Source of the DNA: a virus
Taxonomy: Duplodnaviria > Heunggongvirae > Uroviricota > Caudoviricetes
Virus record (IMG/VR): IMGVR_UViG_3300021979_000001
Span: 2,948 to 66,947 of that record
Strand: one strand, 5' to 3'
Length of the DNA: 64,000 nucleotides
Shown here: piece by piece, positions 830 through 15,930 of the stretch
How positions within the stretch are numbered: position 1 is the stretch's first letter
How the letters are laid out: every line of letters starts with the position of its first letter
Program-made: the position numbers and the translations under genes
The notes under the pieces: model-generated
Databases searched by the model: none
The model's input: the letters and a program-made list of their open reading frames with translations, nothing else
Told to the model about the DNA's origin: nothing

Positions 830-1006
830 TTAACCATAGCCATCCCCATAATCAAACCCACGATCATACTCATGACACGACCTGGCCCGTCCCAAAACTA
901 GAGCCATATTCATTACCATGACCCGAACCATAACCATCATTAGGTGACGCATATTTAATATAATTTAATTTTATTTTATTTTATTTTATTTTATGTATAT
1001 ATTCAT
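830..1006 (-). pseudogene. Decayed Gly-X minigene (MNIYIK leader)
   Basis: ATG AAT ATA TAC ATA AAA TAA. An (ATTTT)5 expansion inside the leader creates the stop, and a frameshift follows before the GY tail. Confidence 0.5.
968..992. repeat. (ATTTT)5 microsatellite
   Basis: Five perfect pentamer units where intact paralogs have one. The extra 20 nt breaks the reading frame. Confidence 0.8.
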
Positions 1007-1087
1007 GATATGTTGTTCGAGTAAAACCAGAATCACTTATATTATAACTCAACTATTACATTATTGGGTAAAATCGTCTCCATCGAT

Positions 1088-1315
1088 TTAACCAAAACCA
1101 TGACCATAACCAAAACCATTTCCGTAACCGTCACCAACCCCATCACCATAACCATCCCCATAACCATAACCGTCACCATCTCCCTGACTATCCCCATAAC
1201 TATTGCCATAACCAAAACCATAACCTTCGCCATCACCATCGCCAGGACCATCACCATACTCGTCGTCATTGGTTATTAATGGTATCGAATAATATAAATT
1301 ATAAATTGTAACCAT
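1088..1315 (-). CDS. Gly-X repeat peptide minigene
   Basis: Leader MVTIYNLYYSIPLITNDDEYG; 75 aa. Confidence 0.65.
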   Translation of the reverse strand: MVTIYNLYYSIPLITNDDEYGDGPGDGDGEGYGFGYGNSYGDSQGDGDGYGYGDGYGDGVGDGYGNGFGYGHGFG

Positions 1316-1335
1316 AACTGGTAACCTTTTGTTCT

Positions 1336-1557
1336 TTAATAATAACCATCCTCTGATCCACCCCCAAGCCCATCTCCATCACTATCCCCATCCCCATACC
1401 CATAGCCATCTCCATCCCCATAACCATGACCATCGCCATCCCCATAACCATAACCATCCCCAGACCCATAACCCAACACCGTTCCACAATCATGCCCATG
1501 CGTCTCGTCATTGGTTATTAATGGTATCGACGAATATAAAATATAAATTATAACCAT
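1336..1557 (-). CDS. Gly-X repeat peptide minigene
   Basis: Uses Met4 of the track ORF; leader MVIIYILYSSIPLITNDETHG; 73 aa. Confidence 0.6.
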   Translation of the reverse strand: MVIIYILYSSIPLITNDETHGHDCGTVLGYGSGDGYGYGDGDGHGYGDGDGYGYGDGDSDGDGLGGGSEDGYY

Positions 1558-1577
1558 AACTGGCAATCGTTTATCCT

Positions 1578-1847
1578 TTAATCATAACCCGCGCCATTCC
1601 CATGACCATTACCAATACCATGCCCACCGCCATAGCCACCACGCCCATTCCCTAAACCATGCCCATCACTATCCCCATAGCCAAACCCATTCCCATAATA
1701 TGAGACATAACCAGAACCAAAACCATTTCCAGAACCAGAACCATCACCATTCCCAATACCATCACCATTCCCCAAGCCATCACTATCATCATCGCCATCA
1801 TTGTATGAACTGGAATTGATATAATTTAATTTTATGGATATATTCAT
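1578..1847 (-). CDS. Gly-X repeat peptide minigene
   Basis: Leader MNISIKLNYINSSSYNDGDDD; 89 aa; tail GAGYD. Confidence 0.65.
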   Translation of the reverse strand: MNISIKLNYINSSSYNDGDDDSDGLGNGDGIGNGDGSGSGNGFGSGYVSYYGNGFGYGDSDGHGLGNGRGGYGGGHGIGNGHGNGAGYD

Positions 1848-1878
1848 AATTCACGCACCTGGTGAAAAATAAGTTGAA

Positions 1879-2190
1879 TCAGTCATAACCATTACCATTA
1901 CCATATCCATATCCATATCCATCCCCATCACTATTCCCATCACCATCCCCAAAACCATTACCATAACCATGACCATAATCTGAAATAGAATCAGAATCAT
2001 TCCCGTGGCCCTTACCAGAGCCATCATTTAGACCATAGCCACTCCCATTCCCAAAACTATCATCATCATCATCATCATCATCATCATCATCATAACCATC
2101 CCAATCATCATAACCACCCCCATCACTATCATCATCGCCATCATTGTATGACCCGTATTTGATATAATTTAATTTTATGTATAGATTCAT
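1879..2190 (-). CDS. Gly-X repeat peptide minigene with poly-Asp insert
   Basis: Leader MNLYIKLNYIKYGSYNDGDDD; 103 aa; contains a D12 run. Confidence 0.65.
   Translation of the reverse strand: MNLYIKLNYIKYGSYNDGDDDSDGGGYDDWDGYDDDDDDDDDDDSFGNGSGYGLNDGSGKGHGNDSDSISDYGHGYGNGFGDGDGNSDGDGYGYGYGNGNGYD
2059..2093. repeat. (ATC)n trinucleotide microsatellite, read as poly-Asp on the minus strand
   Basis: About 11.7 perfect ATC units inside CDS 1879..2190. Confidence 0.85.
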
Positions 2191-2220
2191 TAGATGTCGC
2201 TCCGGTAAAAATAAGTTAAA

Positions 2221-2442
2221 TCATTTATAACCATAACCATAACCATCGCCAGAACCATCTCCATTCCTCTCCCCAGAACCATCACCATGACCATCACCAT
2301 AACCAATACCAGAACCATTCCCATAGCCATGACTATAACCAGTCCCATGCACCGAACCATCCGCAAAACCATGACCAAACCCATATGTCTCGTCATTGGT
2401 TATTAATGGTATCGAATAATATAAAATATAAATTGTAACCAT
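2221..2442 (-). CDS. Gly-X repeat peptide minigene
   Basis: Uses Met10 of the track ORF; leader MVTIYILYYSIPLITNDETYG; 73 aa. Confidence 0.65.
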   Translation of the reverse strand: MVTIYILYYSIPLITNDETYGFGHGFADGSVHGTGYSHGYGNGSGIGYGDGHGDGSGERNGDGSGDGYGYGYK

Positions 2443-2622
2443 AACTGATAATCTTTCTTTTTTAATCATAACAATCCCAGCCCCAAAACCATGACCGGAA
2501 CTATCATTATAAACAATACCGGAACCAGAATCATAATCATAATCATAATCACAACCAGAGCCATCATAGCGTGACCAGGATTTGATATAATTTAATTTTA
2601 TTTTATAGAGATAATCAGGATA
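2443..2622 (-). pseudogene. Decayed Gly-X minigene lacking a start codon
   Basis: The leader remnant LYKIKLNYIKSWSRYDG has no ATG, and the frame reads through into the next gene. Confidence 0.4.
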
Positions 2623-2675
2623 TGTTGCTCCGGTAAAAACTGAATAAATTATATTATAATTTAATTATTGCTTTA

Positions 2676-14091: not shown

Positions 14092-14287
14092 TTATTCGGA
14101 ATTACACCCCAGAGTGCCATACCTAAACCCAAAACCAAAACCATATTCATTCTCACCACCATATCCCTGACCGGAACACGAGCCATAACTATGACCATGA
14201 CTATGACCGGAACTATCGGTATGATCCGGTTCATCACCTGTTTCATTAGTGTGGTCATCGACAAAACAATAACATGTTTATATTCAT
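14092..14287 (-). pseudogene. Frameshifted Gly-X minigene
   Basis: ATG AAT ATA AAC, then a 1-nt shift before CYCFVDDHTNETGDEPD...GY core. The length of 196 nt is not a multiple of 3. Confidence 0.45.
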
Positions 14288-14313
14288 GTTATAATAAGAG
14301 CCATTTGAATAAT

Positions 14314-14550
14314 TTACGATATACGTCCATGACCATGACCATTGCCCGCCCCAAAACCATAATTATAACCATGCTCATTACCGGCGCTATCCCCAGCACC
14401 ATCCCCCATGCCATAACCTGCATGATACTCATTCCCATGACCCAACCCCGGACTATGATCATCCCCATAATCATCCCCGGCACCGGAACCAGAATTATCA
14501 GTTTTTAGATCGGGGTTATCGCAGTAATGAAACATAATCGATGGTTTCAT
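14314..14550 (-). CDS. Gly-X repeat peptide minigene
   Basis: Uses Met15 of the track ORF; leader MKPSIMFHYCDNPDLKTDNSG; 78 aa. Confidence 0.6.
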   Translation of the reverse strand: MKPSIMFHYCDNPDLKTDNSGSGAGDDYGDDHSPGLGHGNEYHAGYGMGDGAGDSAGNEHGYNYGFGAGNGHGHGRIS

Positions 14551-14581
14551 AATTGTTTCACCAAGTAAAAAATAAGTTAAA

Positions 14582-14824
14582 TTATTCACCATCTACGTTG
14601 CCATGACCATTGCCCGTCCCAAAACCATAACTATAACCATACCCATCATCCACACCATACCAGGCACCATCACCATTGCCATAACCCACGTCATATTGAT
14701 TCCCATAACCTTTCCCCGGACTATAATCATCCCCAGGATCATACCCGGCACATGAACCAGAGCCAGAACCATCGGTTATTGGATCGGGTTCATAGCAATA
14801 ATTAAATGCAATCGGTAGATTCAT
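14582..14824 (-). CDS. Gly-X repeat peptide minigene
   Basis: Leader MNLPIAFNYCYEPDPITDGSG; 80 aa. Confidence 0.6.
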   Translation of the reverse strand: MNLPIAFNYCYEPDPITDGSGSGSCAGYDPGDDYSPGKGYGNQYDVGYGNGDGAWYGVDDGYGYSYGFGTGNGHGNVDGE

Positions 14825-14877
14825 AATTGGTTCACCAATGAGAAAAAATAAGTTAAATCATTCACATTATATTTCAA

Positions 14878-15183
14878 TTATTCATAATTACGCCCAGTGC
14901 CATGCCCATCCCCATACCCAAAACCATCACCATCACTAGACACATAACCATCACCATCAACATAACCAATACCATTGCCAGCCCCATCACCATCACCATC
15001 AACATAACCAATACCATTGCCAGCCCCATCACCCATGCCATAACCTTCGTCATAATCATTCCCATAACCCTGCCCCGGATTATGATAATCCCCAGAATCA
15101 TAACCGGCACCGGAAACGGAACCATCACCATCACTTACTAGATCGGGGTTATTGCAATAATTAAATGTAATTGATGGTTTCAT
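14878..15183 (-). CDS. Gly-X repeat peptide minigene
   Basis: Leader MKPSITFNYCNNPDLVSDGDG; 101 aa. Confidence 0.6.
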   Translation of the reverse strand: MKPSITFNYCNNPDLVSDGDGSVSGAGYDSGDYHNPGQGYGNDYDEGYGMGDGAGNGIGYVDGDGDGAGNGIGYVDGDGYVSSDGDGFGYGDGHGTGRNYE

Positions 15184-15243
15184 AATTATTTCACTAAATG
15201 GTTAAACCACGTCAAATCGCACAGTTAGATTACAGGTATTGCA

Positions 15244-15444
15244 TCATTCACCCCTATTCCCATCACCACGACCATAACCCTCACCAGAAACAAAACCTTT
15301 ACCTGAACCATTCCCAAATCCATACACATTACCATAAGATATACCAAAACCATCCTCGGTGCCATGATCAGAGCCATGACCAAAACCATAAACATTGTTG
15401 GGTATATCATGGTTTTGGAAATATGATTCAATCGATATATTCAT
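15244..15444 (-). CDS. Gly-X repeat peptide minigene
   Basis: Uses Met6 of the track ORF; leader MNISIESYFQNHDIPNNVYG; 66 aa. Confidence 0.6.
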   Translation of the reverse strand: MNISIESYFQNHDIPNNVYGFGHGSDHGTEDGFGISYGNVYGFGNGSGKGFVSGEGYGRGDGNRGE

Positions 15445-15512
15445 AATTAAATCATTCATTTATTACATCATCAACTGTTACCAGGTCCATTGTCATACCC
15501 GCTTATCGGCAT

Positions 15513-15770
15513 CTATTCAGGTTCACCACTTGATCCATCCCAGTTTCCACGACTCGAACCATTACCAAATCCAAAAGCCGAACAATAACCATTTTTGTGA
15601 ATAAAAATATGTTCATACGTTTTGCCATCACCATAACCATAACCATAACCAGAACCATATCCATAACCATTACCAAATCCAAAAACCGAACCATTATCTG
15701 AAACAATTTCCGAAACAATTTCATTTGGGCTGCTATCATCGCAATATAATAAATTTATCAGTTCATACAT
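15513..15770 (-). CDS. Gly-X repeat peptide minigene (divergent)
   Basis: Leader MYELINLLYCDDSSPNE; 85 aa. Confidence 0.5.
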   Translation of the reverse strand: MYELINLLYCDDSSPNEIVSEIVSDNGSVFGFGNGYGYGSGYGYGYGDGKTYEHIFIHKNGYCSAFGFGNGSSRGNWDGSSGEPE

Positions 15771-15772
15771 AA

Positions 15773-15930
15773 TTAATACTGACCATCCATCGAACCCTCA
15801 CCAAACCCATGACCATATCCATAAATGTCACCAACATCATCACATTCGCCGCCCCATTTGTATGACAGTAGTTCGTTAGGACGTCATAATTAAAATAATA
15901 AAACCCGATTAATATATTAATGATACGGAC
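15773..15930 (-). pseudogene. Possible decayed Gly-X minigene
   Basis: A tail frame WGGECDDVGDIYGYGHGFGEGSMDGQY follows a stop. The leader-like INILIGFYYFNYD is in another frame and there is no ATG. Confidence 0.3.

Follow-up and report, generated by a model that had tools for sequence, protein, structure and literature searches.

The DNA analyzed was a 64,000-nucleotide (nt) stretch of a tailed phage (Caudoviricetes; IMG/VR record IMGVR_UViG_3300021979_000001, positions 2,948 to 66,947), referred to here at its full length as the window. Its first 18.6 kb carry, on the minus strand, a tandem array of small genes, each encoding an N-terminal leader followed by a core in which glycine alternates with a variable residue, (Gly-X)n. 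The array was found to be a very large protein-coding tandem family containing five real pseudogenes or relics. In this region the minus strand is dense with short open reading frames (ORFs), sharply unlike the rest of the window, and GC skew was −0.32 to −0.51 per 2-kb segment in the array only, being approximately 0 elsewhere. Within the window 59 open units (55 of them at least 60 amino acids [aa] long), five dead units and one unit cut by the window edge were counted. The array extends at least 2.3 kb past window position 1, where eight further genes were found on contigs L167 and L168, and the known units total at least 72 over approximately 21 kb. These limits, up to 18594 at one end and past position 1 at the other, lie beyond the listing in an earlier note on this DNA, which had described five decayed copies in an array undergoing birth-and-death turnover. 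Proteins of the window were found exactly on a contig of the 0.2–1 Mb size class, which indicates a huge phage; megablast of 24 kb of the window against the INPHARED phages gave no match.

A leader profile was built from a curated set of 57 ATG-starting genes. Using nhmmer, this profile regained 57 of 57 together with the short gene at 7764–7883 and the leaders of dead copies 1 and 2. Each unit consists of a leader of 20–25 aa and an acidic (Gly-X)n core, with a median protein length of 81 aa. The leader follows roughly the pattern M-x-x-S/P-I-x-x-x-F/Y-Y/C-x-N/H and continues into a linker that is acidic or rich in His; MNTSIELYYCVNSHLTNDDFMYG, MKPYINQSFYINIYIPETYHG, MNLPINQYFCIHADDHETGSG and MVTIYNLYYSIPLITNDETYG exemplify this N-terminal segment. 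The proteins (30–140 aa) are composed of 29% G, 11.6% Y, 10.3% D, 8.6% S, 7.7% N and 4.8% H, while X within G-X-G is Y (21%), D (18%), N (13%), S (11%), H (10%) or F (8%). They are acidic (median net charge −8, median isoelectric point [pI] 4.39), Asp-rich and Ala-poor, and are without a signal peptide. The longest (GX)n run per gene had a median of 9 and a maximum of 23. All units lie on the one strand, with stop-to-stop frames mostly 0–107 nt apart or overlapping. Promoter and terminator scans showed no excess of such sites within the array, and the genes may be transcribed together.

Judged from the sequence, it is the Gly-X frame that encodes protein. In the leaders (first 25 codons) of 57 of 57 genes this frame contains 0 stops, whereas the remaining two contain 129 and 147. 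The core DNA, being (GGN NAT)n, automatically holds a second frame (Met-Val/Ala...) open, and it is the AT-rich, non-repetitive leaders, open only in the Gly-X frame, that identify this frame as the coding one; the Met-Val/Ala-rich frame was rejected on its 129 stops in the leaders. Shine-Dalgarno-like 4-mers were present 5–18 nt upstream of 32 of the 57 starts, compared with 10.2 ± 2.9 in random array windows. Glycine was encoded by GGT (691), GGC (209), GGA (113) and GGG (292). No Rfam families or tRNAs were found.

Database searches with the array proteins placed them beside no named family. Nine proteins screened against NCBIfam matched only ser_rich_anae_1, a meaningless low-complexity hit of 9–18 bits against a cut-off of 650, and a word-indexed search with one protein gave two matches sharing nothing but GY/GD repeats. 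A profile of 46 array proteins run against 1.84 billion representatives produced 370 weak, composition-driven matches, the leaders being found only in the phage itself. An IMG/VR search with a single array protein found no relatives, and a metagenome scan with the zinc-ribbon neighbor gave no matches. No orthologous array was found in the IMG/VR, metagenome or protein-profile searches. The coordinates of the array, its damaged and shortened members and its neighbors are collected in Table 1.

Table 1. Features of the (Gly-X)n array and its upstream flank; coordinates are window positions.
Feature	Position	Strand	Remarks
Tandem array of small leader + (Gly-X)n genes	1..18594	−	From ORF lists and leader profile
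Dead copy 1	830..1006	−	Five AAAAT in leader give in-frame TAA at codon 7; later core frameshift
Dead copy 2	2443..2622	−	Start lost; two AAAAT; reads into gene with ATG at 2442
Open unit, core cut down	3662..3754	−	30 aa in all; unlisted in the earlier note
Open unit, truncated core	4128..4280	−	50 aa; missed in the earlier note
Truncated open gene	5623..5844	−	73 aa; ends GGA TAG TGA; remnant Gly-X codons downstream as far as about 5550, then frame lost
Open unit, truncated core	7764..7883	−	39 aa; from leader profile; missed in the earlier note
Open unit, truncated core	8814..8918	−	34 aa; unlisted in the earlier note
Young run of three MNLPINQYFCIHADDHET... genes	9300..10153	−	Spacer and leader identical; core indels are multiples of 6 nt
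Dead copy 3	12085..12204	−	GTG for ATG; TAA at codon 5; core about 34 codons
Dead copy 4	14092..14287	−	ATG and 3 codons, then Gly-X frame shifted by one base
Dead copy 5	15773..15930	−	Leaderless relic; 36-codon open fragment with about 12 Gly-X-like codons
Unrelated CxxC zinc-ribbon gene inside array	17827..18213	−	128 aa
Most proximal family member, MMKTVILSYHIVDFY...	18349..18594	−	81 aa; zinc-ribbon gene between it and main array
Terminator-like hairpin	19174..19203	−	13-bp stem and T run; directly after DUF6948 gene
DUF6948 gene, predicted LSm-like fold	19269..19664	−	Only one in window; Pfam 47.5 bits against cut-off 27; own hidden Markov model 5.6e-26

The five lesions reported in the earlier note, and the TAG TGA truncation of a further gene, were all present where it had placed them when the minus strand was read. 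Dead copy 1 begins ATG AAT ATA TAC ATA AAA TAA, its five AAAAT units (ATTTT on the plus strand) lying at 968–992, and the additional frameshift splits ...GSSFGTGQVVS* from ...RSCHEYDRGFDYGDGYG*. The leader motif ATAAAATTAAAT is single-copy in six intact genes; AAAAT is present twice in dead copy 2 and five times in copy 1. In dead copy 2 no ATG, GTG or TTG precedes MIKKERL in the 147-codon stop-to-stop frame 2221–2664. Its two AAAAT units, at 2595–2604, occupy the same leader position as the expansion in copy 1, and it reads through because the usual TAT GAT TAA stop is one base out of register; both details had escaped the earlier note. Dead copy 3 starts GTG AAC ACA CCA TAA, followed by a 34-codon remnant of which the last 44 nt are 95% identical to the 3′ ends of the intact genes 11757–12026 and 11447–11698. 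Dead copy 4 reads ATG AAT ATA AAC and then, out of frame, CYCFVDDHTNETGDEPDHTDSSGHSHG..., the ATG frame stopping at codon 11; the closest intact gene, at 73–79% identity, is too distant for the indel to be located exactly. No leader was recognized in dead copy 5 by nhmmer. Beyond the TAG TGA of the truncated gene the sequence continues TAT GGA TAT GGA TAT GGA TTT GAC ..., after which the frame breaks again.

The lesions arose independently, as the dead copies belong to distinct leader classes and have distinct nearest relatives. That each copy carries a different lesion holds in part: copies 1 and 2 both have AAAAT expansions at the same leader motif, so that their lesions are not wholly of different kinds and the motif is a slippage hot spot. 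The lesions of copies 3 to 5 involve no simple repeat.

Assembly error was examined at the contig level using JGI 3300021977, ENA ERZ23499214 and Logan contigs from runs SRR7168050 and SRR7168051, assemblies that probably derive from the same or sister libraries. Contigs from these sources were exact over every lesion, each lesion being identical in at least two further assemblies and lesion 4 also in the second run, SRR7168051 (Logan L190). JGI contig L167 corresponds to window 1–7119 with zero differences and spans lesions 1 and 2 and the TAG TGA truncation, while ENA contig L168 corresponds to window 1–1401 with 2 mismatches, both outside lesion 1. Lesions 3 and 4 are covered by ENA L188 (1 mismatch, at 13868) and JGI L189, and lesion 5 by ENA L169 (14482–28213) and JGI L170 (14482–23621). 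Single-base differences among the assemblies occur only at 1366, 1397 and 13868, all outside the lesions. The recurrence of the same lesions in the contigs of other pipelines excludes assembler artefacts at the level of contigs, as distinct from heterogeneity at the level of reads.

One difference in gene content was seen. An extra 71-aa array gene (MVAIYELYSSMSLIIIKETRGHGHDYG...) is present in ENA L168 (1714–1929) and missing from the otherwise co-linear JGI L167 (7410–7431); either the copy number truly varies or copies were collapsed in assembly. The JGI and ENA contigs, made by independent assemblers, all end or begin at approximately 14475–14482, inside gene 14314–14550, and JGI L189 is chimeric at its 5′ end and folds back at its 3′ end. 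These ends suggest that the assembly graph branches at the array.

Decay was weighed against the proposal that the lesions are reversible on/off switches, with AAAAT tracts acting as contingency loci, or else sequencing or assembly errors. The tract does occur once, twice or five times at the same leader position in different units, repeat arrays are hard to assemble, and the contigs of two assemblers break near 14475–14482. However, both AAAAT-expanded units carry further defects (a second frameshift in one, start loss and a 3′ frameshift in the other), lesions 3 to 5 lack a simple repeat, and the lesions are identical in JGI, ENA and Logan, with lesion 4 in a second run as well. Switching or artefact was considered very unlikely.

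The claim that intact copies are kept by selection was borne out by the frame-specific absence of stops, by a neutral simulation and by the glycine register. One quarter of the codons (25%) are a single substitution from a stop, and simulated neutral substitution at 5% or 10% per site left 58% or 35% of the genes intact; open units number 59 of 64, though nearest paralogues differ by 9–30%. In aligned cores the Gly-Gly codon pairs had a proportion of synonymous differences (pS) of 0.43, the differences being synonymous only by construction of the class, and X-X codon pairs had a ratio of nonsynonymous to synonymous proportions (pN/pS) of 1.2. Selection therefore holds the frame, the leader and the glycine register and leaves the identity of X free.

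Divergence within the family is concentrated in the cores. The most similar pairs agree throughout 100–200 nt of spacer, leader (0 differences in 66 nt) and 3′ end, and differ in mid-core by clustered changes and by indels of 6, 18 or 42 nt. Periods found by Tandem Repeats Finder in the cores are multiples of 6 (6, 12, 18, 24...), and core differences are mainly indels in multiples of 6 together with changes at codon position 1 of NAT codons. Different 42-nt internal insertions or duplications at the divergent patches point to slippage in 6-nt-periodic DNA. Gene conversion from other copies was considered as their source and was not supported, no donor within 10% mismatch being present in the window. 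No match to a reverse transcriptase of a diversity-generating retroelement was found among the proteins scanned, the scan of the window not being exhaustive. Cores are mosaic between leader classes; the 3′ half of 11143–11388, for example, is 90.6% identical to that of 2960–3163.

Units are 66–95% identical to their nearest paralogue where the two align, and no whole-gene pair exceeds approximately 91%. Seventeen leader classes were distinguished, in the array order ABCDEFG*HIJKJ*LMNMBB*GGGGGOPPPOGGBMIOOGMGIGIIIIBBBQQQG*QBBQQ*QQQ, where an asterisk marks a dead unit. Diverged old singletons occupy the proximal (upstream) end, and young runs (GGGGG, PPP, IIII, QQQ) the distal half. The paralogues are thus of mixed age, independent pseudogenes are interspersed among them, and retained copies are under purifying selection; birth-and-death evolution of the array is well supported by these sequence patterns. 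The further claim that the array turns over quickly fared less well. Identical flanks, the distal runs and the extra gene in L168 speak for it, while the absence of any pair above approximately 91% and the age of the dead copies, which apart from the 3′ end of copy 3 are 70–78% identical to any intact unit, speak against it, so that fast turnover is only partly supported. A high rate is plausible.

The family would have grown by local tandem duplication, and its cores would have diversified by slippage or unequal exchange in the 6-nt-periodic (GGN NAT) DNA. Copies would die by losing the start codon, by AAAAT slippage (in one leader class), by frameshift or nonsense mutation or by internal deletion. 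Dozens of paralogous genes in an array are very unusual for phages, for which genome space is costly, and the keeping open of approximately 21 kb of near-duplicate small ORFs implies a strong benefit that is probably dosage- or diversity-dependent. The array offers a clean natural case, in a virus, of birth-and-death evolution and of proteins diversified by slippage.

A related arrangement was found in other phages. A scan of IMG/VR for (GGNNAT)7GG returned at least 120 stretches of DNA, many of which contain small ORFs in which a short leader precedes a (Gly-X)n core; some have 2–5 such ORFs in tandem. All-versus-all comparison of the neighbors revealed one recurrent partner, a protein of approximately 100 aa encoded directly upstream on the same strand. 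These upstream partners were identified as Pfam DUF6948 (PF22253) in 10 of 10 cases tested, and DUF6948 was present within 1.5 kb upstream on the same strand at 39 of the 56 IMG/VR loci having enough upstream sequence. Profile searching gave at least 7,889 DUF6948 proteins in the database. The reverse test, which avoids ascertainment bias by starting from DUF6948, found a (Gly-X)n ORF as the next gene for all three proteins looked up. The ATG (or GTG) start of the peptide gene falls on the codon for the conserved C-terminal Trp of DUF6948, the two genes in most cases sharing 13 nt in the −1 frame, and the codon before the ATG-overlapped Trp ends in A at 8 of 8 loci whatever its amino acid. Conservation of this A at a synonymous site, together with the overlap, is evidence for a genuine small ORF and for translational coupling between it and DUF6948.

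Cultured phages having the module are Ralstonia phage NK-7 (DUF6948 protein XCO36016; peptide XCO36015, annotated as 'fibroin heavy chain-like protein'), Pectobacterium phage Pappous (CDS0033/0032) and Iodobacter phage PhiPLPE; Chlorobiaceae phage CV-1-33 was counted with them as a putative carrier, and uncultured Caudovirales phage UFOVP98_51 is a further one. In near-identical UFOVP98-like genomes the (Gly-X)n ORF is 59, 91, 93 or 105 aa long. Four module peptides from other phages had a pI of 4.05–4.23, compared with the window median of 4.39. In phages other than this one the leaders are only 5–8 residues long, and X extends beyond NAT codons (L182) with the glycine alternation still kept. 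The module lies among small genes of the early or replication region (helix-turn-helix [HTH], AAA_24, RecE and SAM lyase).

Genome annotations miss or mis-frame the (Gly-X)n peptide. In Chlorobiaceae phage CV-1-33, gene_25 (L187 1846–2091) is annotated in the Met-Ala frame (MAMAMALAMA...), and in PhiPLPE an unannotated GDGSGYGDGYG... ORF (L184 1150–1440) overlaps the end of gp84. Y/D/S-type (Gly-X)n sequence was also seen fused N- or C-terminally to unrelated globular domains (P0138, P0124, L067 1553–1924, P0001), which indicates that the repeat behaves as a portable module. One viral contig (L116 2908–3396) has two ORFs composed of long (Gly-Ala)n runs, a dipeptide repeat of another type, beside a pair of DUF6948 and GY-repeat genes.

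These comparisons bear on the possibility that the array is a selfish or neutral hexamer-periodic DNA satellite with incidental ORFs, its supposed pseudogenes being ordinary variation of functionless DNA, or that the DNA or RNA itself is functional, as a GG-N4 structure or an LSm-binding array. The (GGN NAT)n periodicity does hold two frames open automatically, one deposited phage has its copy annotated in the MAMAMA frame, the strong GC skew is restricted to the array, and a partner with a predicted LSm fold could bind RNA. Either reading is nevertheless very unlikely, given leaders open only in the Gly-X frame, consistently placed ATG and Shine-Dalgarno-like motifs and far more open ORFs than expected under neutrality; in other phages, moreover, glycine alternation is kept without restriction of X to NAT, and the overlap of the start with the Trp codon shows conservation at a synonymous position.

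The single DUF6948 gene of the window lies upstream of the array on the same strand, and its product keeps the invariant residues R41, G46, G50, R67, W69, G88 and P98. Monomer structure predictions assign DUF6948, with high confidence, an Sm/LSm fold, a small bent beta-barrel. Sequence searches with DUF6948 gave no PDB match and nothing informative in PHROGs or PADLOC, and no mention of the family, or of the sample accessions, was found in the literature searched. The module as found elsewhere consists of DUF6948 followed in the same strand order by a small, acidic, short-leader protein with alternating glycine (X mostly Y, D or S) and variable repeat length. The window has the upstream DUF6948 gene and the small acidic alternate-Gly proteins, and the overlapping start is absent. 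Elsewhere one partner gene is usual (at most five per locus were seen), with its start overlapping the DUF6948 stop; here at least 72 units follow, detached from DUF6948 by the hairpin and a gene, with leaders of 20–25 aa and a His- and Asn-rich X. Array leaders often begin M-x-x-S-I-(K/E/H), as at window 1823–1847, 6124–6147 and 12003–12026, and module peptides of other phages begin M-x-S-I-N (MVSIND, MASINN), where TCA ATA A holds the DUF6948 stop; the S-I of the array leaders may be a relic of the DUF6948 overlap.

We infer that a partner gene, usually single, has been amplified more than tenfold in this lineage to give the array. Taken as a whole, the best explanation of the locus, and one that we consider probable, is that the five lesions are decaying copies in a birth-and-death (Gly-X)n family amplified from a DUF6948 module. 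Several points weigh against this. The DUF6948 gene of the window is not overlapped by a Gly-X ORF, the first Gly-X gene starting at 18594, and the hairpin and an unrelated 151-aa gene lie between the DUF6948 stop (19269) and that start. Homology between the array and the module peptides is argued from composition, architecture and the DUF6948 neighbor; descent from one ancestor cannot be proved from low-complexity cores, and the long leaders had no match beyond their own phage. Part of the divergence on which the selection argument draws is slippage and not substitution, and the difference in copy number between L167 and L168 may be an assembly collapse. Any function is deduced purely from fold and composition, DUF6948 being without literature or a PDB sequence match.

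As to function, a tentative suggestion from structural prediction and analogy is that the (Gly-X)n proteins might be disordered or silk-like polyanions acting with the LSm-like protein. They could serve as nucleic-acid mimics or competitors on an RNA-binding ring or, alternatively, as the low-complexity scaffold of a ribonucleoprotein (RNP)-like assembly during host takeover. Amplified, freely varying copies would then make up a diversified repertoire; the freedom of X together with the amplification fits a repertoire shaped by pressure for diversity or dosage, as seen in genes involved in conflict. More doubtful is the broader proposal that DUF6948 and its coupled (Gly-X)n peptide form a widespread, undescribed two-component system acting on nucleic acids or RNPs in host takeover or counter-defence, expanded here to a diversifying repertoire of more than 70 genes with slippage as a built-in generator of variation. 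Such a repertoire would be loosely analogous to toxin or antigen gene families. The module is not previously described in the literature searched, and the wide distribution of DUF6948 (at least 7,889 proteins) with cultured carriers infecting Ralstonia, Pectobacterium and Iodobacter makes it a testable lead. An LSm-fold protein with a separate, acidic, Gly-Tyr-rich partner could represent a new phage route to RNA metabolism or assemblies.

Glycine-rich repetitive tails are familiar among Sm-like proteins. The acidic tail of Hfq is proposed to compete with RNA; in eukaryotes, SmD1, SmD3 and SmB carry repeats of the dipeptide RG, and the tail of LSm4 is of the RGG type. The phage repeat differs from the tails of Sm, LSm and Hfq proteins in being a separate polypeptide and in being acidic and aromatic (D, Y, S) instead of basic (R). 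The likeness of DUF6948 to Sm or Hfq lies in the predicted fold, similarity in sequence being undetectable. A repetitive glycine-rich C-terminus is present in the Hfq of Acinetobacter and other Moraxellaceae (PMC5663733).

As a genomic arrangement the array resembles the mammalian clusters of high-glycine-tyrosine keratin-associated proteins, in which small Gly/Tyr-rich genes lie in tandem with repeat length polymorphism and interspersed pseudogenes. Those clusters are eukaryotic and unrelated by descent, whereas the phage array is viral, tightly spaced and on one strand.

The possibility was also weighed that the (Gly-X)n proteins are structural or packaged, as silk-like fibers or capsid-internal proteins whose leader is cut by a prohead protease after x-E-T/I. 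In many leaders the last residues ahead of the core are DDHET, TNDET, IPET or HDHEI, the repeat is fibroin-like, the NK-7 copy carries a fibroin annotation, and the internal proteins of T4 have a conserved N-terminal targeting sequence and hypervariable loci. Silk fibroin itself has crystalline (Gly-X)n repeats (GAGAGS, GAGAGY), and the phage cores share with it a strict Gly-X alternation with Ser or Tyr at X, compatible with beta-sheet stacking with one all-Gly face. Unlike silk, the phage proteins are short, Asp-rich, Ala-poor, devoid of a signal peptide and intracellular. The E-T motif is absent from several leader classes, the leader in other phages has only 5–8 residues, the module elsewhere sits among early and replication genes and not head genes, and the window has no protease or capsid gene next to the array. 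A structural role was accordingly considered quite unlikely.

A radical S-adenosylmethionine (SAM) enzyme of the SPASM/twitch type is encoded at 21579–22667 on the same strand, 3 kb upstream of the first gene of the array, and the array might be read as a library of precursors of ribosomally synthesized and post-translationally modified peptides (RiPPs) matured by this enzyme. It resembles RiPP families in its many paralogues, leader/core layout, near-identical leaders, divergent cores, abundant Tyr-Gly with many X-Y-G motifs and a radical SAM gene within 4 kb; large paralogous precursor sets are known for the prochlorosins, and spliceases act on XYG motifs. The enzyme has weak matches to a tungsten-cofactor maturase, a twitch-domain radical SAM protein, the mycofactocin radical SAM protein and WgkB, but its NCBIfam matches are all far under the cut-offs. 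Among 46 homologous radical SAM loci in IMG/VR, which keep their own upstream neighbors, none (0/46) has such an array within 10 kb and just two have one isolated Gly-rich ORF; conversely, no radical SAM gene is among the common neighbors of the DUF6948 and (Gly-X)n modules elsewhere. No match to a RiPP recognition element (RRE), peptidase or transporter was found among the 14 scanned proteins nearest the array, and the cores are low-complexity dipeptide repeats. The radical SAM gene was rejected as the partner of the array for lack of co-occurrence, and the RiPP explanation is unlikely. A connection to queuosine, suggested by the mostly NAT-encoded X (Tyr, His, Asn or Asp) and with the radical SAM protein as a possible QueE, was set aside as well; the enzyme is of the SPASM/twitch type, and X is not NAT-restricted elsewhere.

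The radical SAM gene belongs to a cluster (window 21579–26123, minus strand) that is conserved across many huge-phage contigs (loci L001–L046). The cluster includes 3–4 paralogous proteins of 220–300 aa (22936–23637, 23609–24349, 24568–25470 and 25467–26123) without a Pfam or NCBIfam match, and in some relatives (L016, L019, L027, L040) 3–4 radical SAM paralogues occur in one locus. Outside the array the window is phage-like, its other genes encoding among other things a DnaB helicase, a primase, an endolysin-like glucosaminidase and the large subunit of ribonucleotide reductase. The last is divided between two ORFs on the plus strand (43934–45673 and 45818–47092) that correspond to the N- and C-terminal halves of phrog_84 and are separated by a 144-nt gap; the gene may be truly split, or the gap may mark an intron or what remains of an intein. 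Clustered at 26298–28828 are genes for an ion-channel-like protein (Ion_trans_2/RCK, with K-channel matches), a NYN-domain nuclease and an EcoRV-like endonuclease.

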